Shown: positions 1-50,977, numbered from the whole stretch's first letter. The stretch is DNA of 60,888 bases, filler included, from Coriobacteriales bacterium (GCA_031263105.1; 5 parts of 5 records of this genome joined end to end with filler, not necessarily neighbours in it), one strand, 5' to 3'. Numbers and translations: made by a program. Notes: generated by a model not told the origin, from the sequence alone.

Positions 1-87
1 GCGGCCTGAACGCCCGGTCCAGTAGTCGTACTCCTTTTTTACCTCGTCGGAGGCGTTCTCGTAGTCGGTCAATGGCAGGTAACTCAT
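1..87 (-). CDS. N-terminal fragment of a protein running off the window (MSYLPLTDYENASDEVKKEYDYWTGRSGR...), possibly carboxymuconolactone decarboxylase/AhpD-like family
   Basis: Manual translation; ATG at 87-85 preceded by GAAGGAG RBS. The family guess rests on 29 residues only. Confidence 0.45.
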   Translation of the reverse strand, partial: MSYLPLTDYENASDEVKKEYDYWTGRSGR

Positions 88-262
88 GGTGTGCTCCTTC
101 CCCGTGTGGCCCGTGTCGCCTGTGCCGCAGTGTCGCTAATACGACGGGTCTGCTGCTACGGTTTCGCTCGGCCACAGTTGAAACTATTGGAATCTTATAA
201 GCGTAGTATACAACCTCATCCGGCATGATGGGGCCATAAACAACGAATAGCCAAAACAGAAG

Positions 263-1021
263 CTACGGTTCAAAAGGCGGCGGGTCAACCAGCAACTTGG
301 CGAGCGCCCGATAATGTGCCGTCATCTCGCTTGCGGGATACGCCTCCACCACCGTTTTGCCGAGGCTTTCCGCACGCTGGATGTCGGGATGACGGGGCAG
401 ACGGTATACAACATCGGTTCCTATCTCACGGGCGGCCCTGTCCACCAGGGCATCCTCGTCCTCTATGCCCTTCGCGTTCAAGATGATGCCGCGAAGCGCC
501 GCGTATCCCTGCTTGGAAAAGTTCCTGACTGCGGTGGCGATGTTTGATGCCGCGTACAGGGACATCATCTCTCCTGAGCTCACGATACAGACCTCATCGG
601 CGTAGCCCTGCCGGATGGGCTGCGTAAAGCCACCGCAGACCACATCTCCCAGCACGTCATAAAGGACGATGTCAGGCTCGTAAACTGCATAGGCATCGAG
701 TTCCTCCAACTTCTCAAAGGCCGTGATGATGCCTCGCCCAGCGCAGCCTACCCCCGGGAGCGGTCCGCCGGCCTCCACGCAAAGCACGCCGCAGGCTCCT
801 TTTACTACCAACTCATCCAAGTTCACCTCTCTGCGCGTGCGGAGAAGGTCGAGTACGGTGGGGATGCCAACGCCCCCGGTGAGGCTTCTTGTCGAGTCCG
901 CCTTGGGATCGCATCCTATCTGCAGAACCCTCAGACCCATGCCTGCCAGTGCCGCCGCAAGGTTGCCGGTGGTCGTGGACTTGCCGATGCCGCCCTTGCC
1001 GTAGACAGCCAGTTTCTTCAT
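263..1021 (-). CDS. Nitrogenase iron protein-like reductase (NifH/BchL/CfbC family, group IV-like)
   Basis: [12 protein letters not shown]-loop, [24 protein letters not shown] and [11 protein letters not shown] with both 4Fe-4S cysteines; short 252-aa form. Confidence 0.93.
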
Positions 1022-2568
1022 AATGCCCCATCCTCGGATTCGGTAGTGTCGGATGATGACGGGCCCTTGCCGTCCCGTCCGTCCCGTCCGCTCCGCTCGT
1101 CCCGCTCATCCCGCCCATCCCGTCTGTTCTGTCCATCCCGCCCGTCTCGTCTGTTCTGTCCGCTCGGCTCATCCCGTCCGTCCCGTCCATCCCACTCGTC
1201 CCGCTCATCCCACTCGTTCCTCGTGTCGTGCTCATAGGCCAGCCCGGCGTTAAGCCAGAAGTCGAGCAGGTTCAAGGCGCCGCGGAAGCCCAGGAAGGGA
1301 GGCTCGTAGGGATTGACGCGCCAGCGGAGGTCGGGGTTTGCTATCTGTAAGCCCCTGAGTCTCTGCGAGGTCTCTGCGCCGCGGTCTCTCAGGGAGAGTG
1401 CCTCGCCGCTTGCCATAAGCAGCCCAGCCCTGTGACGCACGACCTCTTGTGACCACGCATCCTCCGTAAGAAAGGGAAGCCCCTCCGTACCCATTTCAGG
1501 ATCGTCGCACCAGCACAGGCCACGAGAGCCACCCAGCTCCTCATCCGCAAAGGCGAGGATACCCTTCACGACATCGATGTGTCCTCCGATTGACAACCGT
1601 ACCGCGCGGGGGCTTTTGTTTGCCAGATGCGAGAAAACGGGCGCAAGCCGTGCGCTCAGTGTCTGAGACTCCTCGTTCTCCCTGGCAAGGAAGCGCTCGT
1701 CGACTGGCAGACCGCTCGCTTGCGCAACCTGTCGTATCCAACGGGTTGTGGCCGGGGCACCATAAGGGCGTCCTATCACGAAAGCTGTGCCAAAACGTTT
1801 GTGCAGGCAGCGCGCGGCCGCCTCTCCCTCGTGTCGGATGACCAGGTTTACCCGCGCGTTGCTCATGTGCCGGATCTGTTCCACCGAACAATCGGAGGTC
1901 ATAACGCACAACGGCGTCATCCCAAAGGCCCCGGTCATTATCCGCTCCAGCTCCTGCGCGTCCGCTTTGAAGCGGAACAGGTCGGCACACGAGCCGATGA
2001 TGTTGAACGATAATGGCTCCGCCTGTCCTGCCGCCCGTCCTCCCGCCCGTCCTCCCGCCCGTCCTCCCGCCGGTGCTACCCCCGCCCCCGCCGCATCTAC
2101 TCGCGTCGTCTGTCCCGGTCTGCCAGCAAGGGACTCAGCCAGACGAAGGAGTGCCCCGCGTACTCCCTGAGGCTGTGTTGCGTCGAGGCTCCCGTGCCCA
2201 AAGGGAATGAGCAGGGCTTCAGGGTACTTCTCGCGTAATCCCTGACAGAGAGACGCAAGGTCCACACCGATGATCTGGGGTATGGATGAGGGGAGAAGGA
2301 ATACGACGTGGTGTCCGTCTTTCCGTATGATGACGTCAAGCGCCTCATCCAGCCGGTCGGTTCTGCCCAGCGCTATGTCCGTCTCGTCAAGATGCGTGGA
2401 GTACAGGCTGCACGATACGGGCACACCGGCCCTGTCCAGAAGCGAATGACTGTAGAGCAGGTGCCCCATGCACCCGAATTCCAGGAGCGCGGCGCCTCGG
2501 ATGGGCGCAAGCGTCCAGAGCGTCCCCATGCGCCCGGAAGAAGGCGGTGTGAATCGGTACAGGCCCAT
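1018..2568 (-). CDS. Nitrogenase component 1-like subunit (K/BchB/BchZ-like), with a repeat-derived C-terminal tail
   Basis: [40 protein letters not shown] and PFLGFRGA motifs; TGA overlaps the nifH-like ATG (ATGA). Confidence 0.85.
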
Positions 2569-2571
2569 GTC

Positions 2572-4053
2572 TCATCCCCGTCCCTGCCGTGTGATCGCAG
2601 CAGTCGCAGCGGTCGCAGTAGTCGCAGTAGTCGCAGAGGATGAGGAGCCCACGTTTGCGCTGCCCTCTTTTTCTTCGACGGCACGCAACAGAAGTTCCAG
2701 CAGGCCGATCATCCGGTCGTAGCCGAGCTTTGTTCGCAGGGTGCCCACAGAAGGCAGGCACATGCTTGGGCTTTTGCCGGGCAGTGCGCCGAAGCAGAAA
2801 TCAGGGTCGAGGTCCTGCAGCGCTGCCGCATCCTGTCGCACGTTCACCAGGTGGCAGACCAAAGGGTCATAGCCCTTTGCGTTGAGTTGCTGTGCCTGCG
2901 CCCGTTGCGCAGGCGCGAAGTCATCGATATGGAGGAGCAGCGGTTCCATGCCGAGCTCCGCAAGATAAAGGGCCAGCGGGATGGGCGAGACCTCGCCGAG
3001 GGGTGCGCAGACATACCGCGTGCCCCTCAGCGCGTCCTTTGCCTGTTGGTGGAGAATGGCGGCGTGCTCCCGTCTCTTTGAGGAGAACAGGGGAGCATCG
3101 AGTCGCAGGAGCTCCGTGATTCTGGCAAAGACCTCATCCAGGGTGGCTATGCCGTACGCATCGCAGAGCGTACAAAAGGGGACGGCGAAGCTGCGCTCCA
3201 TCTCCTGTGCCAGTTGCTCTGCCCACGGAGAAAGCACGAGGTTCAAAACGGCGTCTGGTGCCTCGCAAAAGCCCTCGATCGGCGTTCCCGTGCCTAGGAA
3301 GCGCAGGTGAAACCCCTGGTTTCTGATGACCTGAAGCTCCTCTGGCAGCTCGCCGCGTGCCGTGTCCGGTGTCCAGCCCAGCACATTGACGCTTCGAGTG
3401 GTCGCGCCTTGGCGGGCCCCCGCATCTCGGCGACCGCTCTCGTCTCGGCGAACCCCCGCGCCCCGGCAGTCACTCTCGTCTCGGTAAGCTTCCGCATCTC
3501 GGCGACCGCTCTCGTCTCGGCCAGCCCCCGCGCCTTGAGGCTCCATCAACGCGCAGAGCGACGCCAGCGCCTTGCGTAGCCCCTGGGGATGGCTGTTGCA
3601 TTTGAAATGCCCTGCCGGAAGGGGGATAAGCGACGCTGAGACCTGGGGACGCAGTCCATAGAGGATGCCTTCGATGTCCTCGCCCGTCAGTTCGGGAACG
3701 CAGGTGAAAATGACCATGATGGCGCGCGCCCCGCCGCGATCCATCTCTCTGATCGCGGCGGCCAGTCCCTCTCCGCAACCGAATATCACCTCGCTGTCGT
3801 CAAGCACGTAGCTCCAGTGCCGCGCTGTCGCATCATGGCTGCGTGCGGCGACGACGCGACTGTACACCGTGCATTCCGGCATACCCACAACCAGCGTTGA
3901 AAGGCCGGGCACCGTTGTCGCGAACGCCAGGGCGGTATGCATGGGGCAATGGTTGCCGGGCGTGGCCGCCGGTGTCAGGAACCTCACGCCGGCGTCGGAG
4001 CGGACGGCGGAGAGTCGCTGAAGATGCGACAGGCACGCTGGTCTTTCGCTCAT
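2572..4053 (-). CDS. Nitrogenase component 1-like subunit (D/BchN/BchY/CfbD-like)
   Basis: Three spaced Cys motifs (NHCPMH, GMPECTVY, FTCVPELTGED), EVIFG, VNVLG, ELGME and GYD motifs; ATG overlaps the upstream ATPase stop. Confidence 0.85.
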   Translation of the reverse strand: MSERPACLSHLQRLSAVRSDAGVRFLTPAATPGNHCPMHTALAFATTVPGLSTLVVGMPECTVYSRVVAARSHDATARHWSYVLDDSEVIFGCGEGLAAAIREMDRGGARAIMVIFTCVPELTGEDIEGILYGLRPQVSASLIPLPAGHFKCNSHPQGLRKALASLCALMEPQGAGAGRDESGRRDAEAYRDESDCRGAGVRRDESGRRDAGARQGATTRSVNVLGWTPDTARGELPEELQVIRNQGFHLRFLGTGTPIEGFCEAPDAVLNLVLSPWAEQLAQEMERSFAVPFCTLCDAYGIATLDEVFARITELLRLDAPLFSSKRREHAAILHQQAKDALRGTRYVCAPLGEVSPIPLALYLAELGMEPLLLHIDDFAPAQRAQAQQLNAKGYDPLVCHLVNVRQDAAALQDLDPDFCFGALPGKSPSMCLPSVGTLRTKLGYDRMIGLLELLLRAVEEKEGSANVGSSSSATTATTATAATAAITRQGRG

Positions 4054-4895
4054 GTTCGCACATCGCCTTCGGACGGGGGTAGCGCGTTGGGCGCCGGATG
4101 CCTGAGCGGGGCATGCTTCAGGTCATACGAGATGCAAATGGGTCGCCCGGTGCGTGGGTCGGGCCCTACTTCCGCGTCGATATGGAAGGTGTCGCCCAGC
4201 ACCTTTGCCGAGACCACCACCTCCGGCGTCCCGTGCTCAATGATAGAGCCGCCTCGCACGGCGACCATGTAATCGGAGAAACGCGCCGCGAGGTTTATGT
4301 CGTGAAGCACCATGATTATCGTACGGCCCTGCCCGCGATTGAGGTGGTGCAGGAGCTCCAGTATTTCCAGTTGATAGGCCAGGTCGAGATAGGTCGTCGG
4401 TTCATCGAGCAGGATGAGGTCGGTCTGCTGGGCAAGCGCCATGGCTATCCACGCGCGCTGGCGCTGTCCGCCGGACAGGCTGTCTATCGCTGTGGTCTCA
4501 TCATCGGCAAGCCGAGTGGCCTCCAATGCCCAGGTTATGACCCGTTTTGACTCCTGATCGAGTCTGCCCATGCCCCGCTGATGGGGGAAGCGACCATAGG
4601 CGACCAGCTCGCCCACGGTAAGCCCCTCCGGGGCCTGAGGAGCCTGAGGCAATATCGCCATCCTTTGGGCGACTTCCCGCGTCGAGAGACTACGGATGTC
4701 ATCGCCGTTCAGGTAGATCAGTCCGCTTTGAGGCTTGAGGATGCGCCCGATTGCTTTGAGTATGGTCGACTTGCCGCAGCCGTTTGGCCCGATAATGGCG
4801 GTTATCCTGCCCTGCGGTATCCGCATGCACAAATCATCGAGTACCCGTTTTTCGTCATAGGCGACTGCCAGCCGTTTTGTCTCAATGCTGTCCAT
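4050..4895 (-). CDS. Iron-siderophore/heme/cobalamin ABC transporter ATP-binding protein (FecE/FhuC-like)
   Basis: GPNGCGKST, LSGGQRQRAWIAMALAQ, LLDEPTTYLD, VLHDIN; start chosen at MDSIETK. Confidence 0.92.
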   Translation of the reverse strand: MDSIETKRLAVAYDEKRVLDDLCMRIPQGRITAIIGPNGCGKSTILKAIGRILKPQSGLIYLNGDDIRSLSTREVAQRMAILPQAPQAPEGLTVGELVAYGRFPHQRGMGRLDQESKRVITWALEATRLADDETTAIDSLSGGQRQRAWIAMALAQQTDLILLDEPTTYLDLAYQLEILELLHHLNRGQGRTIIMVLHDINLAARFSDYMVAVRGGSIIEHGTPEVVVSAKVLGDTFHIDAEVGPDPRTGRPICISYDLKHAPLRHPAPNALPPSEGDVRT

Positions 4896-4926
4896 CACTG
4901 CTCTCGCTTTCATCACTCGCTTTTCA

Positions 4927-6120
4927 TCAGAATTTGCTCTTTGCGAGCAGGTAGAGGAAGTAGGGCGCGCCGATGACCGCCACGATGATGCCAACAGGTA
5001 TCTCGGCGGGCTGAACGATGCTGCGGGCGATGGTGTCGGCGACCGAGACCAGGACTGCCCCGGTCAGGGCGCAGACGGGGAGCAGGATATGGTGCCGTGA
5101 GCCCACCAGCCGTCGAGCGAGATGTGGGGCTATGAGTCCCACAAAGCCGATGCTCCCACTCACCGCGACGCTCGACGCGGCAAGGGCAACGGCAATCGCC
5201 AGCAGCTTGACCTGCTCTCTGCCGAGTGGCACGCCCAGACTGATGGCGGTCTCGTTGCCAAGAAGCAGCACATCGAGGACGCGGCTTTTTGTCAGCACGA
5301 GAGGAACGAGCAGCGCAAACCAGGGCAGAAGTGCCAGCACATACTGCCAGTTCGAGCCCCAGATGCTGCCCGCCTGCCAGGTGGCGAAGTTCGCGAGCTG
5401 TGTGTCATCGAGCTTGACCACCAGCAGCAACGTGGCGGCCGCTATGCCCGCCTGCACGGCGATACCCACCAGTATCAGCCGCAGCGGCGCGACGCCATCG
5501 GATCTTCGGTAGGCCAGCGCATAGATGAGGACGGCCGTCAGCGAGGCTCCGCAAAGTGCCAGAAAGGGGAGCAGGAACACCGAATAAAACGACATCCTGC
5601 CGATGAACAGGGTAAATAGGATGACCATGATGCCTGCCCCCGCGTTGATACCGAGCAGTCCGGGGTCGGCGAGGGCGTTGCGCGTCACGCTCTGTATGAT
5701 GCAGCCGGCCAGTGCCAGCCCCATCCCCACGAGGACGGAGATGACGATACGCGGCAACCTGAACTCGAACAGGATAAGCTCTTCCTGCGGCGTGCCGCTT
5801 CCCGTGAGGATGCGTGCGATGTCCAGAGGGGACAGCCCGGTATAGCCGGTGCTCATGCTGACGACAAAGGACAGGAGGAGCAGGGCGGAGAAGATGGCAA
5901 CGACGAGCGCGCAGCGGCGGCGCACTCGTTGCCTGTGTCTGGCCGTCTTTTCCTGGCGCGCCTCCCCTTGGTGTGTGTCCTGCTGGTGCGCCTCCCCCCG
6001 GGGCGTGTCCCCTTGGCGTGCGTTCTCCCGCAGCGCTTCCCCTTGGCGCGCATCCTCCTGCCGCATCTCCCCCTGCCGCGCATCCCCCTGCCGCGCGTTC
6101 CGCTCCTCCTCCCTCGTCAC
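4927..6120 (-). CDS. FecCD-family ABC permease (FhuG-like) with N-terminal 5-aa repeats
   Basis: RLPR, TRNALADPGLLG, IGFVGLIAPH and GAPYF motifs; GTG at 6120 overlaps the upstream TGA. Confidence 0.9.
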   Translation of the reverse strand: MTREEERNARQGDARQGEMRQEDARQGEALRENARQGDTPRGEAHQQDTHQGEARQEKTARHRQRVRRRCALVVAIFSALLLLSFVVSMSTGYTGLSPLDIARILTGSGTPQEELILFEFRLPRIVISVLVGMGLALAGCIIQSVTRNALADPGLLGINAGAGIMVILFTLFIGRMSFYSVFLLPFLALCGASLTAVLIYALAYRRSDGVAPLRLILVGIAVQAGIAAATLLLVVKLDDTQLANFATWQAGSIWGSNWQYVLALLPWFALLVPLVLTKSRVLDVLLLGNETAISLGVPLGREQVKLLAIAVALAASSVAVSGSIGFVGLIAPHLARRLVGSRHHILLPVCALTGAVLVSVADTIARSIVQPAEIPVGIIVAVIGAPYFLYLLAKSKF

Positions 6121-7196
6121 TGAGCCCTCCTCTGTCTGCGTGCCAGATGCAGGAAGAACGGCACACCGATGAGCGCTATGATCGCGCCGATTGGTGCCTC
6201 GAACGGCGGAGCGAGCGTGCGTGCGCCTAAGTCTGCCAGAACCACGAGAAGGGCGCCGAGAACCGCTGAGGAAGGAATTATCCAACGATAGTCGACCCCA
6301 ACCAGGAAGCGGGCGAGATGCGGGACAATCAGGCCGACGAAGCTGACAGCACCCACAACGGCGACCGCGGTGCCGGCCAGGAGCAGGACGACGACCGAGC
6401 AGAGGACGCCGACAAGCATCGTGTTGACCCCCAGCCCTCGGGCGACCTCATCACCCAGGCTCAGGATTGAGACAAAGCGCGACAGGGCCAGCGCTCCGAG
6501 CAGAGCCGCGCCTATCAGAGGCGCAACGATTGCGAGTTGTTCCCAATCGCAGCCGGCGACGCCTCCCAGAGTCCAGAACGTGATGCTGCGCACCACCTTG
6601 AAGTACAGCGTGATGCCCTGGCTGAGCGCCACAAGGAGAGCGCTGACCGCTGCTCCGGCCAGGACGAGGCGCATGGGTGTCGCTCCTCCGCGTCGCAGCG
6701 ACGCGACGCCGTTGACGAGCCCCGCTCCCAAGGCGGCTCCGACAAACGAGAAGATGATGATCTGCAGGTACGATACCTGCGGAAAAAAGGCGAAACAGAG
6801 CGCAAGGGCAAGACCCGCGCCAGCGTTGAGCCCCATGAGCCCGGAGTCCGCCAGGGGGTTACGCGTTATCCCCTGCATGATGGCCCCCGCGACGGCGAAC
6901 GCCGCTCCGACCAGTGCGCTCGCGATGACCCGTGGCAGGCGCAGTTGCGTGATTATCACATGGTGGGTGTTGCTCCCATCAAAGCGAAGGAACGCATCCA
7001 GCACCGAACTGAGCGGTATGGTGATGGAGCCCCGCGTGACGGAAAAGGCCATACACAGCACCAAAAGCGCACTGCCACCCGTGATGATGAGCAGGGCTAC
7101 TCCCGCGCGTCCCTTCCCTTTCTGTCTCTTAGGGGTGTCCCGTGCGGCCTGTTTGTCCCGTGCGGCCCGTGTGCTCTGTCTGCTCTGTCGTGTCAA
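6117..7196 (-). CDS. FecCD-family ABC permease (FhuB-like)
   Basis: RLPR, QGITRNPLADSGLMG, SFVGLIVPH and GVPFF motifs. Confidence 0.9.
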   Translation of the reverse strand: MTRQSRQSTRAARDKQAARDTPKRQKGKGRAGVALLIITGGSALLVLCMAFSVTRGSITIPLSSVLDAFLRFDGSNTHHVIITQLRLPRVIASALVGAAFAVAGAIMQGITRNPLADSGLMGLNAGAGLALALCFAFFPQVSYLQIIIFSFVGAALGAGLVNGVASLRRGGATPMRLVLAGAAVSALLVALSQGITLYFKVVRSITFWTLGGVAGCDWEQLAIVAPLIGAALLGALALSRFVSILSLGDEVARGLGVNTMLVGVLCSVVVLLLAGTAVAVVGAVSFVGLIVPHLARFLVGVDYRWIIPSSAVLGALLVVLADLGARTLAPPFEAPIGAIIALIGVPFFLHLARRQRRAQ

Positions 7197-7213
7197 CCGT
7201 CTGCCTCTCTGTC

Positions 7214-8929
7214 CTACCGGGCGGTCTGTGCCTGATAAAGCATCGCGTACGTCCCCCGGTTTCGCAGGAGCTCGTCGTGGGTTCCCTGCTCGGCAATGCC
7301 GTCTTTGTCCAAGACGATGATGTGGTCGGCCGAGCGCATCGTGGCAAGGCGATGGGCGATGATGAGCGTCGTCCTGCCCTGCGACAACTCCGCGAGTGCC
7401 CGTTGGATGCCGGCCTCCGTTTGGGTATCCAACGAGGACGTTGCCTCATCGAGGATGAGGATGGGCGGGTTCTTGAGGAACATCCTCGCTATGGAGACGC
7501 GCTGCTTCTGTCCACCTGAGAGCTTGACGCCGCGCTCGCCGATGGGGGTATCCAGACCGGCGGGCAACTCGCTGATCAGGGTATCCAGTTGCGCGCGTCG
7601 CACGGCCTCTGCCACCTCCTCCTCCGTCGCGTCGAGACGGCCAAAACGGATGTTTTCACCAATCGTGCCTGAGAACAAAAATACGTCCTGCTGCACTACG
7701 CCGATCTGTTTGCGCAGAGAGCGCAGCTTCAGCGTCCGTATGTCCGTGCCGTCTATTGTGATGCGCCCACAATCCGGCTCATAGAACCGGGGGATCAGAC
7801 TGCACAGGGTCGTCTTGCCCACACCGGACATGCCAACGATGGCGGTGGTCTTTCCCGCCGGCATGCACAGGCTTATCCGCCTCAGTATTGGCCGGTTGCT
7901 CTCATAGGAAAAGCTCACGTCCTCGTAGCGAATCTCACCGTTGGGGAAGCACCGGTCTTTTGCGTCAGGCGCATCCTGAATTTCCGGCCGGGTGTCCATG
8001 AGCGTGGCGAAGTTCCTGAATCCCGCCATTCCCTTGGGGAAGCGGACGGAGAACGAGGCGAGCATCTGTATCGGCATGACCATGATGTTTGCCAGCAGGA
8101 TGAAGCTGAAGAGGTCGCCGCCGGTCATGCTGTTGGCGAGCGTGAACCAACTGCCTACCAGCAGGGCGGTGAGGGGCAGGATGCTGCGCAGGAGATAGGT
8201 AATCGCCTCGTTGGTGGCAAGGTTTTTGATGCTGTCTGCCTTTGCCGCGCAGAAGCGTTGGTTATCGGCAAAGAACAGGTTTCGGTAGTGCTCCTCGTTT
8301 GTGAAGGACTGCACGACGCGAATGCCGCCGATGCCGTCTTCCAGGCGGGAGACAAAGCCTGCTATCGCGGAGAGCATCTCCTTATGTGAATGTATCAACC
8401 TGCGGAAGAAGTACATATTGCACGCGATAAGAAACGCAACAACAGCGCTCATGACGAGTGCCAACAGGAGGTTGGTATGCAGCATGAGCGCGAAAGAGCC
8501 CGTCAGCGTGCACAGGGCGATAAACAGGTGTTCGGGCCCATAGTGGGCCATATTGCTCACGTCGAGCAGGTCGTTGGAGATGCGGGACGCGAGCTTGCCC
8601 GTCTTGTTGTTGTCAAAGAAGCTGAACGAGAGCTTCTGGAGGTGGTCGTAGAGCTCCAGGCGCAGGTCGGTCTCGATATACATTCCCAGGCGCTCGCCCC
8701 AGTAGTTCACCACAAACTTCAGGCCGGTGCTGACAACATAGACGCCCGCGAGAAAGGCGCAGGCGGACAGGATGAGGCTCCAGTTGCCCTGCGGCAGGAG
8801 GTCGTCCACGATGCGGCTCACCGTCAGGGGAAAGAACAACTCCAGCGCTGCCGAGATGACAGCGCAGGAGAAGTCCAGAAAAAACAGCCCCTTGTACGGC
8901 CGATAATAGCGTATGAACCTGCGTAGCAT
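7214..8929 (-). CDS. Fused ABC transporter permease/ATPase (exporter fold)
   Basis: N-terminal TM domain followed by GMSGVGKTT, LSGGQKQR and LDEATSSLD. Confidence 0.9.
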   Translation of the reverse strand: MLRRFIRYYRPYKGLFFLDFSCAVISAALELFFPLTVSRIVDDLLPQGNWSLILSACAFLAGVYVVSTGLKFVVNYWGERLGMYIETDLRLELYDHLQKLSFSFFDNNKTGKLASRISNDLLDVSNMAHYGPEHLFIALCTLTGSFALMLHTNLLLALVMSAVVAFLIACNMYFFRRLIHSHKEMLSAIAGFVSRLEDGIGGIRVVQSFTNEEHYRNLFFADNQRFCAAKADSIKNLATNEAITYLLRSILPLTALLVGSWFTLANSMTGGDLFSFILLANIMVMPIQMLASFSVRFPKGMAGFRNFATLMDTRPEIQDAPDAKDRCFPNGEIRYEDVSFSYESNRPILRRISLCMPAGKTTAIVGMSGVGKTTLCSLIPRFYEPDCGRITIDGTDIRTLKLRSLRKQIGVVQQDVFLFSGTIGENIRFGRLDATEEEVAEAVRRAQLDTLISELPAGLDTPIGERGVKLSGGQKQRVSIARMFLKNPPILILDEATSSLDTQTEAGIQRALAELSQGRTTLIIAHRLATMRSADHIIVLDKDGIAEQGTHDELLRNRGTYAMLYQAQTAR

Positions 8930-8944
8930 TATGCTATGACGCGC

Positions 8945-9925
8945 CTATTTGGCAAGCAGGAAATCGACCATCTTGTCAGCGGTGTACTCGGTCGAGACGA
9001 TGCTCGTCGAGTGCGCCGCGCCATCGATGGTAAAGACCATGCCGTCTTTTACTGCCTGAATGGTCTGCCAGACGGGACTACTCTGGAGCTCTTCGGCAAT
9101 GGCTTCGTCTCCGTTGAATACCGCGAGGAAGAGTATGTCCGGGTTCATCTCCGCCAATGTCTCCAGCGGCACCTGTTGGTAGCCGGCACCGAACTCTGGG
9201 TAACCCGTTGGCGCGGTAAAGCCCAGGCCAAGTGCGGGATCATAGAACTCGCCTCTGCGGGCGCTGAAGTACCTGTCCTTGCCCATCACCGAAAGCATGA
9301 CGACGGTCTTTCCTTCCAGGGTGGCGCTCAGTTGTTCCCTGTCGCTGGCAAGCTGTGCATCGAACTGGGTGATCCGCTCCTCTGCCTCGTCTTCCAGGCC
9401 AAGTATCTTCCCAAATTCCCGAAGGGCGTAGCGGCTGTCCTGCCCAAGCTGCCCATCCATGACGATGACCGGTGCTATCTTCTCCAGGTTCTCGACGCCA
9501 TCGGGTGTGGCGATGAAGATAAGGTCGGGTGCGAGTGCTGTGAGCTTCTCAAGGTTGAGCGTGGGGTCGCCCATGTCCTCGACGCCACTCACCTCATAAT
9601 CCTCAAACGCGTCCCAGGTCTGCCGGTAGTGCTCCGCGCTTGACGCGCCGGCGGGCATGATGCCAAGGGCCATCAGGTATTCCCAGTAGGGGAGGTAGTC
9701 GACGACTATCTTCTCCGGGAACTTCTCAAGGGTGACCGTTCTGCCGGCTGCGTCGGTATAGGTGCGTGGCCAGGCGCTATCCTCCGTTGTGGTTGTTGAT
9801 GATGTTGAGGCGGGCGGTTGGTTCTGCGGCTCGTCGGTGGCGGGGTTGCCGCATCCTGCGATCCCCGCGATTCCTCCGCCTATGAGCAGGGTGATGAGCA
9901 GCAGGCTGATGAAACGACGTGTCAT
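8945..9925 (-). CDS. Iron-siderophore/heme-type ABC substrate-binding lipoprotein
   Basis: AAAAGGAGG RBS, signal peptide with IAGC lipobox, WPRTYTDAAG, NLEKLTALAPDLI and WQTIQAVKDG. Confidence 0.88.
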   Translation of the reverse strand: MTRRFISLLLITLLIGGGIAGIAGCGNPATDEPQNQPPASTSSTTTTEDSAWPRTYTDAAGRTVTLEKFPEKIVVDYLPYWEYLMALGIMPAGASSAEHYRQTWDAFEDYEVSGVEDMGDPTLNLEKLTALAPDLIFIATPDGVENLEKIAPVIVMDGQLGQDSRYALREFGKILGLEDEAEERITQFDAQLASDREQLSATLEGKTVVMLSVMGKDRYFSARRGEFYDPALGLGFTAPTGYPEFGAGYQQVPLETLAEMNPDILFLAVFNGDEAIAEELQSSPVWQTIQAVKDGMVFTIDGAAHSTSIVSTEYTADKMVDFLLAK

Positions 9926-9938
9926 GGTTCCTCCTTTT

Positions 9939-9954
9939 GTTAGCAAGAGCTAAC
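9939..9954. promoter_or_regulatory. Putative DtxR/IdeR/MntR-family operator GTTAGC-AAGA-GCTAAC
   Basis: Palindrome with perfect 6-bp arms immediately upstream of the RBS of the binding-protein gene; a similar site lies at 11089-11104. Confidence 0.6.
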
Positions 9955-10020
9955 TCCTTGTGTGCAAAAAACCGCTGCGAGAACGGCTCTGATGGCGCGC
10001 CCTGTTCCTGGCGCCATGCG

Positions 10021-10049
10021 AGTGTAATGAGAGTCGGCTCGACGGTCAA
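10021..10049 (-). promoter_or_regulatory. Sigma70-type promoter TTGACC-N17-TACACT for the transport/nitrogenase-like operon
   Basis: -35 at 10049-10044 and -10 at 10026-10021, with 17-bp spacing. Confidence 0.6.
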
Positions 10050-10083
10050 TGGACGCATTCCAGGAAGGGATGGACTTTCTCCA
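10049..10083. promoter_or_regulatory. Direct repeat ATGGAC-N4-TCCA x2 with 21-bp period; candidate AraC-family activator site
   Basis: ATGGACGCATTCCA (10049-10062) and ATGGACTTTCTCCA (10070-10083) abut the -35 element; an AraC gene is adjacent. Confidence 0.5.
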
Positions 10084-10105
10084 TGTTGCCGTTCGCGCGC
10101 TACCC

Positions 10106-10141
10106 TGTCATTGCGAGGGAGCGAAGCGACCGCGGCAATCT
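10106..10141. repeat. Half REP-like element (TGTCATTGCGAGGGAGCGAAGCGACCGCGGCAATCT)
   Basis: Has the GTCATT...AATC architecture of the other palindromic repeat ends in the window, with a variant core. Confidence 0.45.
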
Positions 10142-10214
10142 TTCTCCGCGTCGCAGCGCGCGAGGCAACAGGGTGGGCACGACGGGTCAGGCATGATAAG
10201 TCAGGCACGACGAG

Positions 10215-11051
10215 TCAGGCTGTGGGCGTTGCTTCTTTTGAGCGTGAGGCAAAGACACTCGGTGCCATGCCCGTGTGTTTCTTAAAGAGCCTGCTGAAAT
10301 AGTAACTGTCGCTGAAGCCGACACTTCTGGCGACCTGCTCTATCGTATAAAGGCCGGTGCCGAGCAGCTCTTTGGCATGGCGCATGCGTATGTTGACGAG
10401 GTAATGGGATGGCGCCATGCCAACGTGCTTGGAGAAGAGATAACCAAAGTGTTTCGCGCTCATGTCGTACAGGGCTGCCACCTGCTGGATGCTCAGTTCT
10501 TCTCCGTAGCTTTTGTCGAGGAAGGCAAGGGCATCGTCTATCAGGCTGCGCTCGTCAGCCTGGTTGTGGCGATGAACGGCGGTAACGACCTCCTCTATCA
10601 GACCGGCAAAAAGCGTTCGTGAGCGCAGCGTCGCCAGGCACCCGTTGTTCCGCGTGCTCGCGTGAAGCTGACGCGCGTGCTCAAGCAGGCGGATGTTGCT
10701 GCCTGTCTCGGCGCAGAAGTGCGAACGATAGAGAGGAAAGCTGCTCTCCTCCTGCTTGGGGATGGTGTAGTGTATCAGCACGCAACCCCAGTGGCTATCG
10801 CCCATGACCCGTTTCTCCAGCTCCATGGCGGCTCCGGCATGCAATACGACTCCGGGTTTGAGCTCATAGGAAACGCCGTTGAGGGTATAGCGCGCTTTTC
10901 CGCATAAGGGTATGACCAGCCCACTTCCCTCGGGGCTCGTTGTGGGGTCTGAAAGCTCCGTGTGAGCCGGAACGACGCCCTCAAAGGTGTCGTGCAGGGA
11001 CGGCTGGGCAAAGGTGTAATACTCGGCGAGCTCATTGGCATCGATAGTCAT
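10215..11051 (-). CDS. AraC-family transcriptional regulator
   Basis: C-terminal double HTH (VARSVGFSDSYYFSRLFKKHTGMAPS); AGGAG RBS. Confidence 0.93.
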   Translation of the reverse strand: MTIDANELAEYYTFAQPSLHDTFEGVVPAHTELSDPTTSPEGSGLVIPLCGKARYTLNGVSYELKPGVVLHAGAAMELEKRVMGDSHWGCVLIHYTIPKQEESSFPLYRSHFCAETGSNIRLLEHARQLHASTRNNGCLATLRSRTLFAGLIEEVVTAVHRHNQADERSLIDDALAFLDKSYGEELSIQQVAALYDMSAKHFGYLFSKHVGMAPSHYLVNIRMRHAKELLGTGLYTIEQVARSVGFSDSYYFSRLFKKHTGMAPSVFASRSKEATPTA

Positions 11052-11086
11052 GATAACTCCTGGCGAGGGTAGGGCTTTCCGTCGTT

Positions 11087-11106
11087 AAGTTAGTGTATCA
11101 TAACTT
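11087..11106. promoter_or_regulatory. Putative DtxR-family operator AAGTTAG-TGTATC-ATAACTT overlapping a TATGAT -10 of the AraC gene
   Basis: Near-palindrome matching GTTAG-N6-CTAAC with one mismatch, about 35 bp upstream of the AraC ATG. Confidence 0.55.
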
Positions 11107-11184
11107 CATCGACCGACAGCCCGGCATTCGCATGTGCACAACGGACGGGCGTCGCCGCAGCCCGTAACCATGTCGCCGTCGTGC

Positions 11185-11616
11185 TCATGTGGGTAGTTTG
11201 GCCATGCAGTATTGGGTGAGGCCCAACTCCCTGTTGGTGGTGAGGCGGATGATCTCAAAGCCTTTGTGCATGTAGATATTCATGGAGCGTTCCGCGTAGG
11301 TCTCAAGGCACAGGGGGATGCGCAGGCGTTCCGCGCGGGCGATGACCGGGTCAAAAAGCGCGCTCAGTACGCCTCGGCCCCGGTAGTGCGGGTTCACGCA
11401 TGCGGCGGCCAGGTAACCGTAACCATCAGGAAAAGCCTGCGTACACCAGGAGTCGCTGTCCAGGACTTTCAAGCGGTGCGCGTGTTCTCTGATCAGGCGC
11501 GCCTCGGCTGTGCTCAGAGTGCTGCAACCACGCTGGAGCCCGCGCTCCCAGAGCGCCGCGTAGTCGGCGGAGCTAAAGGCACCCGCCGTGTCAAAGAGCA
11601 GCGTGCCGGCCGGCAG
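11185..11616 (-). CDS. GNAT-family acetyltransferase, 5'-partial at contig end
   Basis: YLAAACVNPHYRGRGV, CLETY and IYMHKGF motifs; the frame stays open up to the N-gap. Confidence 0.75.
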   Translation of the reverse strand: MPAGTLLFDTAGAFSSADYAALWERGLQRGCSTLSTAEARLIREHAHRLKVLDSDSWCTQAFPDGYGYLAAACVNPHYRGRGVLSALFDPVIARAERLRIPLCLETYAERSMNIYMHKGFEIIRLTTNRELGLTQYCMAKLPT

Positions 11617-11716
11617 NNNNNNNNNNNNNNNNNNNNNNNNNNNNNNNNNNNNNNNNNNNNTTAATTAATTAANNNNNNNNNNNNNNNNNNNNNNNNNNNN
11701 NNNNNNNNNNNNNNNN
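11617..11716. other. Artificial contig linker
   Basis: N44-TTAATTAATTAA-N44 (stops in six frames). Confidence 0.98.
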
Positions 11717-25336: not shown

Positions 25337-25436
25337 NNNNNNNNNNNNNNNNNNNNNNNNNNNNNNNNNNNNNNNNNNNNTTAATTAATTAANNNNNNNN
25401 NNNNNNNNNNNNNNNNNNNNNNNNNNNNNNNNNNNN
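25337..25436. other. Artificial contig linker
   Basis: N44-TTAATTAATTAA-N44. Confidence 0.98.
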
Positions 25437-44715: not shown

Positions 44716-44815
44716 NNNNNNNNNNNNNNNNNNNNNNNNNNNNNNNNNNNNNNNNNNNNTTAATTAATTAANNNNNNNNNNNNNNNNNNNNNNNNNNNNN
44801 NNNNNNNNNNNNNNN
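44716..44815. other. Artificial contig linker
   Basis: N44-TTAATTAATTAA-N44. Confidence 0.98.
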
Positions 44816-50877: not shown

Positions 50878-50977
50878 NNNNNNNNNNNNNNNNNNNNNNN
50901 NNNNNNNNNNNNNNNNNNNNNTTAATTAATTAANNNNNNNNNNNNNNNNNNNNNNNNNNNNNNNNNNNNNNNNNNNN
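50878..50977. other. Artificial contig linker
   Basis: N44-TTAATTAATTAA-N44. Confidence 0.98.

Follow-up and report, generated by a model that had tools for sequence, protein, structure and literature searches.

Pairing of a D with a K subunit, and of an H-type Fe protein with the resulting DK complex, is textbook knowledge for the nitrogenase superfamily. In the part of its text that treats nitrogenase-like clades, a 2026 review lists a verified or proposed function only for Nfa, CfbCD, MAR, ISR, DPOR and COR, leaves most of these clades without one, and finds gene context of little help beyond links to sulfur or tetrapyrrole metabolism (PMC13474568); the words 'siderophore' and 'iron transport' do not occur in its main text (PMC13474568). 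The NifH/NifEN-like clusters of Clostridium botulinum (CLM_0808/0809) and Alkaliphilus oremlandii (Clos_0313/0314) were described by Dos Santos et al. (2012), who in the passages devoted to them report that the E/D-like subunit has three P-cluster cysteines and the N/K-like subunit conserves none, and describe an upstream NifH and ATP-binding cassette (ABC) ATPase with co-located ABC transporters (PMC3464626). Here, a related nine-gene locus was analyzed in a 60,888-nucleotide stretch of DNA (the window) from a Coriobacteriales bacterium (GCA_031263105.1), in which the genes for two nitrogenase component 1-like subunits (D and K) and a NifH-like Fe protein (H) follow those for an AraC-family regulator and a Fec/Fhu-type importer.

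The C. botulinum locus (L013) was found inside our D, K, and H clades, which places the window and the clusters of Dos Santos et al. in the same clade. Thus, both the clade and its place beside ABC transporter genes have been known since 2012 (PMC3464626), and the initial annotation was right in stating that uncharacterised homologues occur near transporters, as the same passages show for Clostridium botulinum and Alkaliphilus (Dos Santos et al., 2012). The role put forward there, metal transport combined with cofactor assembly, was a suggestion, and the type of transporter was not analyzed in the passages concerned (PMC3464626). The window differs from those clusters in its gene order, D-K-H and not H-D-K, in the insertion of an exporter-type ABC gene, and in low-complexity insertions in D, K, and FecD. 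New here are the extent and closure of the module, the separate H, D, and K clades, a histidine at a ligand position of K, and the convergence of accessory genes and Fur-box-like sites on siderophore iron. We propose, at a probability of about 0.5, that the module serves ATP-driven, import-and-reduce acquisition of iron from an imported siderophore or a similar Fe-chelate.

The whole module lies on a single contig (C221, window 1-11616, 11.6 kb), with its genes at 263-11051. All nine genes of the minus-strand run listed by the initial annotation were recovered at their places, and are given below in the direction of transcription together with the adjoining features:

10215-11051, minus strand: AraC-family regulator of 278 amino acids, first gene of the module (HTH_18 6.1e-20, HTH_AraC 1.5e-16)
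9926-10214, minus strand: intergenic region 5' of the binding-protein gene, likely carrying the operon promoter and regulator sites
8945-9925, minus strand: Fec/Fhu-type substrate-binding lipoprotein, cluster A (Peripla_BP_2 1.2e-21; signal peptide, lipobox IAGC)
7214-8929, minus strand: fused ABC half-transporter with exporter fold, 571 amino acids (ABC_membrane 1.9e-45 and ABC_tran 2.3e-35)
6117-7196, minus strand: FecC, FecCD-family permease 1 (FecCD 7.6e-87)
4927-6120, minus strand: FecD, FecCD-family permease 2 (FecCD 2.5e-94), with a low-complexity N-terminus rich in Arg, Gln, and Glu
4050 to about 4913, minus strand: FecE-type ABC ATPase (ABC_tran 3.5e-32; FecE model 310.8 bits against a cut-off of 375)
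2572-4053, minus strand: nitrogenase-like D subunit, 493 amino acids (Oxidored_nitro, PF00148, 1.7e-55)
1018-2568, minus strand: nitrogenase-like K subunit, 516 amino acids (Oxidored_nitro, PF00148, 2.9e-42), with low-complexity insertions and tail
263-1021, minus strand: NifH-like Fe protein H, 252 amino acids (Fer4_NifH 3.2e-90; Walker A GKGGIGKS)
1-87, minus strand: first 29 codons of an open reading frame (ORF) truncated by the contig end, its ATG following GGAAGGAG 175 nt past the H stop, with a good ribosome-binding site

According to the Pfam matches, an importer is encoded in a single operon and made up of a binding protein of cluster A, a pair of FecCD permeases, and an ATPase of the FecE/FhuC type; its top NCBIfam models are FecE, FhuB/FecD/FecC, and FecB/FepB/FhuD, each matched below its equivalog cut-off. 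The enzyme genes are tightly coupled to those of the transporter: the 4-bp overlaps ATGA at 4050-4053 (FecE stop and D start) and ATGA at 1018-1021 (K stop and H start) were confirmed from the sequence, the GTGA overlap at 6117-6120 (FecC stop and FecD start) holds if the GTG after GAGGAGGG is the FecD start, GAGGAGGG being the ribosome-binding site ahead of this GTG at 6120, and D and K are separated by three bases (2569-2571). Genes for nifB/E/N, bch, cfb, or sulfur metabolism were found nowhere on C221. The positions of the overlaps, the gap between D and K, and the absence of such genes from the cluster had been pointed out in the initial annotation. Its expectation that the enzyme genes are transcribed together with the transporter finds weak support: for the homologous locus L022, contigs of close relatives from RNA libraries (four studies, coded organisms) are 90-99% identical to the module and extend over most of it, one of them connecting the 3' portion of FecE via H with D, another lying over the H-D junction, and a third over D and K. 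These contigs bridge the junctions and thereby hint at FecE-H-D-K co-transcription; a single transcript is not proven by them.

The relatives of D comprise one protein at 64% identity and about 80 at 29-45%, which are labelled 'nitrogenase component 1' and derive mostly from Bacillota. A pattern scan with the D-family alignment, restricted to one genome per species, returned 142 relatives, of which the best 80 loci were retained; their ORFs were scored against the nine proteins of the window, and a partner was counted when it lay within 8 kb of D. A subset of 62 loci was fully flanked, with at least 6 kb upstream and at least 1.5 kb downstream. K accompanies D in 76 of the 80 loci and in all 62 fully flanked ones, and H does so in 72 and 60, respectively. 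At least one FecCD permease was detected in 65 of all and in 54 of the fully flanked loci, the binding protein as well as the AraC regulator in 64 and 54 each, and FecE in 52 and 44, while all seven partners occur together at 34 of the 62 fully flanked loci. The linkage of the enzyme genes to FecCD transporters that the initial annotation presupposed is thus conserved, being present at 54 of 62 loci, and is beyond chance. When the remaining neighbouring ORFs were clustered, the widest other family was present in at most 13 of the 80 loci; hence, the module is closed and consists of a regulator, an importer, and an enzyme. The commonest order is AraC-binding protein-FecC-FecD-FecE-H-D-K. H is located upstream of D in 72 of the 80 loci and downstream in none, and is the first of the trio wherever it is adjacent in the relatives, so that the D-K-H order of the window represents a peculiarity of its lineage.

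The hosts of the module belong to Clostridia, Tissierellia, Negativicutes, and Paenibacillaceae, with single loci from a Treponema (Spirochaetota), a Flexilinea (Chloroflexota), and a Methanoplasma archaeon. When 1.84 billion cluster representatives were searched with a profile, 165 proteins with E ≤ 1e-30 were obtained. Within the order to which the window belongs, a D homologue at this threshold was present in one of 150 other genomes sampled, many of them incomplete; vertical inheritance within the order is therefore unsupported, and the distribution is patchy, like that of an accessory trait.

Membership of the encoded proteins in the nitrogenase-like superfamily follows from a NifH-type Fe protein combined with two Oxidored_nitro paralogues. 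None of the curated NCBIfam cut-offs was attained. H scored highest on CfbC (318 bits against 402), then on nifH (309 against 394) and BchL (210 against 345). For D, the best NCBIfam model is nifE with 39.7 bits against a cut-off of 505, and the CfbD model TIGR03282 was not matched at 1e-3; the BchB model gave 47 bits against 490, and D and K reach a maximum of 49 bits on any Nif or Bch NCBIfam model. At the level of structure, H matches NifH (1cp2) at 4.2e-76, whereas the profile of the D family found only remote matches in the PDB, namely NifE (1.5e-21), VnfK (5.8e-16), NifD (about 1e-15), the MarD chain of methylthio-alkane reductase (4.9e-13), BchB (7.8e-6), and BchN (1.8e-3). The predicted fold of D is about equally close to NifK, VnfK, NifD, NifEN, MarD, and ChlN (TM-scores 0.5-0.6, identity 14-19%); as the top fold matches are all nitrogenase component-1 chains with similar scores, no single relative is indicated.

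Trees were computed with references taken from annotated plasmids of Sinorhizobium fredii and Nitratidesulfovibrio vulgaris (NifHDK) and of Sulfitobacter guttiformis (BchLNB, BchXYZ), together with the CfbD of Methanoplasma (377 bits, above its cut-off) and other nitrogenase-like sets of the host and Methanoplasma genomes. The transporter-linked D, K, and H proteins were each monophyletic (SH-aLRT 99, 99, and 95), on stems of about 1.3 changes per column for D and K and 0.4 for H. In these trees, which derive from a quick search with weak deep nodes and several long reference branches (including Bch), and which left out Groups IV-D/E, IV-F, and VI as well as MarD/IsrD sequences, all three proteins stand outside the characterised clades that were included, separate from the Nif, BchNB/YZ, CfbD, and NifB-linked group IV references. 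In addition, a true nitrogenase is contradicted by the missed nifH/D/K cut-offs and by the lack of nifB and nifE/N on the contig, and a Mar/Isr-type enzyme by the absence of a radical SAM gene, which is missing from the contig and recurs nowhere in the 80 loci, and of any sulfur context. For Group VI, of the Elusimicrobia type, a radical-SAM-rich neighbourhood is described in the relevant part of a preprint (bioRxiv 10.1101/765248); a neighbourhood of this kind was not seen among the 80 loci.

The conservation of putative cluster ligands was counted over 75 D, 70 K, and 71 H proteins. Cys36, Cys61, Cys118, and Cys400 of D are invariant (75/75), and so are Cys93, Cys129, and the Walker A motif GKGGIGKS of H (71/71). 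In K, His36 is present in 70/70 and Cys194 and Cys221 each in 69/70 proteins, whereas Cys33 and Cys53 are found in 60/70 and 62/70 only. The positions for comparison were defined by the A. vinelandii residue numbers and the NifK motifs, which we take to be as commonly given. Alignment of D with NifD by hhalign equates Cys61 with Cys88 and Cys118 with Cys154; Cys36 was assigned to Cys62 by spacing only, since it lies 25 residues ahead of Cys61, comparable to Cys62 ahead of Cys88 in NifD, in a stretch where the alignment is inexact. In the alignment with NifK, which has an hhalign probability of only 62%, His36 of K takes the position of the bridging Cys in HGSQGC and Ser95 that of the Cys in TTC, and a Cys is missing from the N-terminal segment of K, so that the set of six P-cluster cysteines is incomplete. 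The ligands of the iron-molybdenum cofactor (FeMo-co) are missing as well, Cys275 of NifD being replaced by Ser275 in D (74/75) and no His being found at the position of NifD His442. This pattern suggests that D and K form a DPOR-like enzyme with a single inter-subunit [4Fe-4S] cluster and no FeMo-co-type cofactor. Lacking a FeMo-co-type site, such an enzyme would not need NifB, and the module is indeed devoid of NifB. The ligand pattern agrees with the description of the C. botulinum and Alkaliphilus members by Dos Santos et al. (2012) (PMC3464626).

Comparison with the described systems gives likeness and difference in each case. As in DPOR (BchL/BchNB, Group V), to judge from the sections of the review on that enzyme, an ATP-dependent Fe protein is combined with a heteromeric catalytic component, and an asymmetric [4Fe-4S] cluster is predicted that would be held by three Cys and a non-Cys or variable ligand, with neither a FeMo-co-type cofactor nor NifB (PMC13474568). 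Unlike in DPOR, the proteins fall into separate clades, score far under the BchL/N/B cut-offs, and are not accompanied by chlorophyll genes; moreover, the module is tied to an importer, so the substrate would be taken up and not made. CfbCD (Group IV-B) shares with it a simple-cluster nitrogenase-like organization and provides, with CfbC, the top NCBIfam model of H (318 bits), but CfbD is a homodimer whereas D and K are two distinct subunits, the clades are separate, and H remains under the 402-bit cut-off. MarBHDK and IsrBHDK (Groups IV-C and IV-F) provide a parallel in that a nutrient is scavenged and an ABC importer is co-expressed, as the pertinent sections describe (PMC13474568; PMC11423573). 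A radical SAM partner resembling NifB and neighbours from sulfur metabolism, both of which Mar and Isr systems possess, are absent from the module, and the match of MarD to the D profile is only 4.9e-13. Siderophore reductases of the FhuF, FchR, and SIP/ViuB types are encoded in uptake operons, are small flavin or [2Fe-2S] proteins, and use NAD(P)H or ferredoxin and no ATP. The enzyme proposed here would likewise be a cytoplasmic reductase that works with a Fec/Fhu-type importer and frees chelated iron; it differs from FhuF, FchR, and SIP-type proteins in showing no kinship to them in sequence or fold, and it would be ATP-driven, two-component, and able to reach much lower potentials.

The nature of the imported compound was approached via the importer and its accessory genes. 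Among solved structures, the binding protein of the window is nearest to the ferrichrome binder FhuD of B. subtilis (7.3e-26), followed by YfmC, FepB, and FeuA, and no named heme or B12 binder is found among its 43 solved matches. The 69 binding proteins of the module loci, which are 25-44% identical to that of the window, match the models of FecB (69), FepB (69), FhuD (66), IsdE (58), and BtuF (2), and none attains a curated (equivalog) cut-off. Of the NCBIfam models, the AraC regulator scored best on that for the DNA-binding part of Btr (bacillibactin transport regulator), with 78.9 bits that fall far short of the cut-off. TonB-dependent receptors are encoded beside the module in 4 of the 80 loci, in diderm Negativicutes, and on a plasmid of Sporomusa termitida; the two that were tested gave 339.6 and 352.4 bits on TIGR01783, a model of siderophore receptors (cut-off 223.5), as compared to 81 and 57 bits on a heme-receptor model (cut-off 317) and 55 and 49 bits on BtuB (cut-off 600). 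Esterases of PF00756, the Fes/BesA family, are encoded in 9 of the 80 loci and, on the plasmid of Sporomusa termitida, behind K; at 4 loci, the gene after K encodes a repressor of the DtxR/MntR family. In several loci, two pairs of AraC and binding-protein genes precede one common permease/enzyme set, the arrangement found where one permease serves several xenosiderophore receptors. Furthermore, the host genome has 16 FecCD matches over the cut-off, and neither an NRPS (non-ribosomal peptide synthetase) condensation domain nor an IucA/IucC synthetase was found in it (86% complete), which fits a scavenger of foreign chelates.

Fur-box-like sites of the 7-1-7 type, searched with the consensus TGATAATNATTATCA, which we presume to be the accepted one, were found with at most two mismatches upstream of 19 of 79 loci as compared to 1.47 expected from shuffles, and with at most one mismatch at 6 loci as compared to 0.08; they occur in Paenibacillus, Pelosinus, Sporomusa, Tissierella, Metaclostridioides, a Clostridium, and other Bacillota. 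An Rfam search of the contig (E ≤ 0.1) and of six homologous loci (gathering score) retrieved no family and hence no cobalamin riboswitch. Import of cobalamin is accordingly unlikely, given the lack of a riboswitch on the contig and at the six loci and a BtuF match in only 2 of the 69 binding proteins. The substrates named in the initial annotation, 'siderophore, heme or other tetrapyrrole', are narrowed by the binding proteins, TonB receptors, esterases, and missing riboswitch towards siderophores, heme and B12 being less favoured; as far as gene context can tell, it points to ferric siderophores over heme or B12. Iron-responsive control, also presupposed there, finds support in the enrichment upstream of the homologues and none in the window itself.

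Following this, we propose that the AraC regulator, probably by sensing the chelate, switches on the Fec/Fhu-type importer, with Fur adding iron control in many relatives, and that the importer, comprising the lipoprotein, two FecCD permeases, and FecE, would carry a ferric siderophore or similar Fe-chelate to the cytoplasm. There, an H dimer with a [4Fe-4S] cluster would feed electrons of very low potential at the expense of ATP to D2K2, for which a single inter-subunit [4Fe-4S] cluster of the DPOR kind is predicted, with three Cys ligands from D and a His or Cys ligand from K, and no FeMo-co-type cofactor. Reduction of the chelate would then free its iron under anoxia, the likeliest reaction being Fe(III) to Fe(II) at a potential too low for ordinary reductases; alternatively, a bond within the chelate ligand may be reduced. 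In the present version of the module and some others, the exporter-type ABC protein might send the emptied ligand or product back out. This fused protein scores 447 bits on an MsbA-like model (under the cut-off) and matches Sav1866 at 5.4e-108; orthologues of 729-869 bits occupy the equivalent position in Pelosinus (L043, L051, L056) and Lacrimispora (L075), the single-gene exporter orthologues span 140-869 bits when a fourth Pelosinus locus, L048, is included, and three other homologous loci encode the exporter as a pair of genes. A more specific version, which we regard as tentative and somewhat doubtful, would make the enzyme the first nitrogenase-type ATP-driven ferric-siderophore reductase, acting on pirated, very low-potential (e.g., catecholate) siderophores in place of hydrolysis, with the exporter recycling the intact ligand.

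Several points weigh against import and reduction of a ferric chelate. No functional study of the clade was found in full-text literature searches, and the literature searched contained no assigned function and no experiment that ties the clade to iron or siderophores. No Fur box is present in the window (7-1-7 consensus, at most three mismatches; a DtxR/IdeR-type box was not searched), where another repressor or AraC alone may take the place of Fur in this GC-rich genome, and 60 of the 79 homologous loci have no Fur-box-like site at up to two mismatches. The control for these counts was a mononucleotide shuffle, which is lenient, so that the AT-rich composition of intergenic regions may inflate the contrast, and the related Paenibacillus and Pelosinus loci are not independent of each other. 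The RNA contigs attest presence in libraries and do not prove transcription, strand, level, or iron response. The analogy with DPOR, COR, and CfbCD favours a heme-like substrate, and 58 of the 69 binding proteins weakly match the IsdE heme model. Loci with Fes-type esterases seem to have less need of a low-potential reductase, the roughly 12 Fe that a complex would contain according to its predicted clusters would be costly for an iron-starved cell, and a one-electron reduction of a metal is unlike the bond reductions of known family members. Finally, the clade may already belong to a labelled but uncharacterised group such as IV-D/E, IV-F, or VI. Taken together, the computable parts of the initial interpretation, i.e., linkage, clade, and context, are favoured, and the reduction of a chelate is what we infer from them.

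The most probable of the alternatives is a tetrapyrrole substrate. If the substrate were heme or another metallo-tetrapyrrole, the macrocycle would be reduced for an O2-independent removal of iron or for tetrapyrrole conversion; DPOR, COR, and CfbCD, all enzymes with simple [4Fe-4S] clusters, do work on tetrapyrroles according to the relevant sections of the review (PMC13474568), and the ligand pattern of D and K is DPOR-like and devoid of FeMo-co ligands. FecCD-type importers also take up heme and B12, the ATPase and the permeases give matches under cut-off to heme and BtuC models of NCBIfam, IsdE is matched at best at 2e-16, and iron regulation would be compatible with heme as an iron source. 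We nevertheless consider a heme-like substrate unlikely, because the TonB receptors exceed the siderophore cut-off and stay far under those for heme and B12, the nearest solved binders are all siderophore or ferric-citrate proteins with no named heme or B12 binder among the 43 matches, Fes/BesA-family esterases accompany the module at 9 loci and on one plasmid, and neither a cobalamin riboswitch nor more than two BtuF-matching binding proteins were detected. Even less probable, it appears, is some other substrate that merely enters through a Fec-type importer, be it a metallophore for a metal other than iron (Ni, Co), an antibiotic of the sideromycin type that has to be detoxified, or an organic nutrient to be cleaved reductively. 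The divergence of the binding proteins, none of which attains a curated cut-off, leaves room for it, the exporter-type ABC protein of some versions would suit detoxification, and Mar and Isr (group IV) cleave C-S bonds of small nutrients in the accounts given of them (PMC13474568; PMC11423573). Iron is indicated instead by the Fur-box enrichment, the siderophore-type TonB receptors, the Fes-family esterases, and the DtxR-family repressors, and neither sulfur-metabolism nor nickel or cobalt genes are recurrent near D in the 80 loci.

The proposal of Dos Santos et al. (2012) implies that D and K are a NifEN-like scaffold on which the transported metal builds or repairs the metallocofactor of another enzyme. 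Coupling of metal transport to cofactor assembly was put forward for this very clade in the passages cited above (PMC3464626), and NifE is the top PDB match of the D profile (1.5e-21); a scaffold is nonetheless improbable in our view, as neither a radical SAM gene resembling nifB nor a conserved client enzyme accompanies the module, D has Ser at the cluster-holding Cys275 position and no His at that of His442, and the transporter is of the chelate type and not of the free-metal or molybdate type. Least probable of all, and hardly to be expected, is mere co-regulation, in which an iron-rich enzyme with an unrelated cellular substrate would be co-expressed with an iron importer. The need for about 12 Fe per complex, deduced from the predicted clusters, and the 8 of 62 fully flanked loci that have no adjacent permeases would agree with it, but it is opposed by the translational coupling in the window, by a gene order that is repeated across Bacillota, Spirochaetota, Chloroflexota, and an archaeon, and by the confinement of the D, K, and H clades to the transporter context among the loci examined, with no other conserved partner.

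Variants of the arrangement, and further nitrogenase-like genes, were observed in several genomes. At five Paenibacillus loci (L062, L065, L073, L078, and L079), D and K directly follow FecD with no adjacent H or FecE, and a second binding protein/FecC/FecD set, PF00756 esterases, and FecE lie just downstream; as H is not adjacent, the Fe protein must be encoded elsewhere or shared. In the host of the window, contig C232 (L088 167-8563) carries a paralogous operon of fused ABC, FecC, FecD, and FecE genes, each 63-69% identical to its counterpart in the window (fused ABC 63%), followed by D-like and K-like proteins of 236 and 286 amino acids that fall inside the D and K clades and lack the C-terminal halves, and then by a binding protein and a NifH of 439 bits, over the nifH cut-off. 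The short D and K proteins may be remnants or a working mini-version. Another host contig, C113 (L087 26-9584), encodes AraC, intervening genes including a PIN-domain gene, H (nifH 405 bits), D, K, and a radical SAM protein resembling NifB (259.8 bits with the nifB model, under the cut-off) in a Mar/Isr-like layout; its H, D, and K proteins belong to another clade than the transporter-linked set. The Methanoplasma genome (source of L042; loci L095-L111) has five NifH-like genes, each with D/K-like partners, and these sets include a 763-amino-acid H-D fusion (L098 490-2781), a genuine CfbC/CfbD/CfbE set, and the transporter-linked module, in which the D gene contains one in-frame TAG that may be read through or may be a break. 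The order of Methanoplasma is known for pyrrolysine.

Within the intergenic region of the window, a promoter-like sequence TTGACC-17-TACACT is located at 10049-10021, in a contig where the promoter scan gave no more hits than shuffled expectation; the same holds for the terminator scan, and no internal terminator was found at the gene junctions. Three 17-nt direct repeats (GGCACGACGGGTCAGGC and variants) with 14-nt spacing at 10176-10220 span the boundary between the AraC gene and the intergenic region, and could be regulator sites. D (3403-3525, residues 177-217), K (1018 to about 1230 and about 2010-2120), and FecD (about 5925-6120) contain lineage-specific insertions and tails of low complexity in which Arg, Asp, Glu, Gly, and Gln abound, with repeats such as RDESGRRDA (D), GRDGRDE (K), and ARQGE (FecD). 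An insertion similar in kind to that at residues 177-217 of D is found in the relative of 64% identity (P0002) and is absent from all others; in the AlphaFold model of D (pLDDT 80.8), this insertion and the C-terminus have values below 50, the insertion being disordered.

The source genome, a metagenome-assembled genome (MAG) of 2.9 Mb in 250 contigs, has a completeness of 86% and a contamination of 6.5%. The window consists of at least five of its contigs (C221, C222, C223, C224, and C226) strung together with N runs, paired runs at 11617-11716, 25337-25436, 44716-44815, and 50878-50977 serving as joints, and gene neighbourhoods can therefore not be read across the N spacers. Since C221 stops at 11616, genes past this position are not linked to the module; at its other end, the contig terminates 262 nt past H within another ORF. 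The GC content of C221 (0.614) lies inside the 5th-95th percentile range of the contigs of the genome (0.596-0.699).

Within the nitrogenase superfamily, the context of this clade is unusually clean and testable, consisting of a closed module of a regulator, a chelate importer, and a reductase. If the proposed reaction with siderophores is true, it would explain how strict anaerobes make use of ferric chelates below the potentials of ordinary reductases, and metal-chelate reduction would be a new substrate class and function for the superfamily, with a role in the competition for iron in guts, digesters, and sediments. Should the substrate be heme, the module would represent a new oxygen-independent route of heme-iron use.

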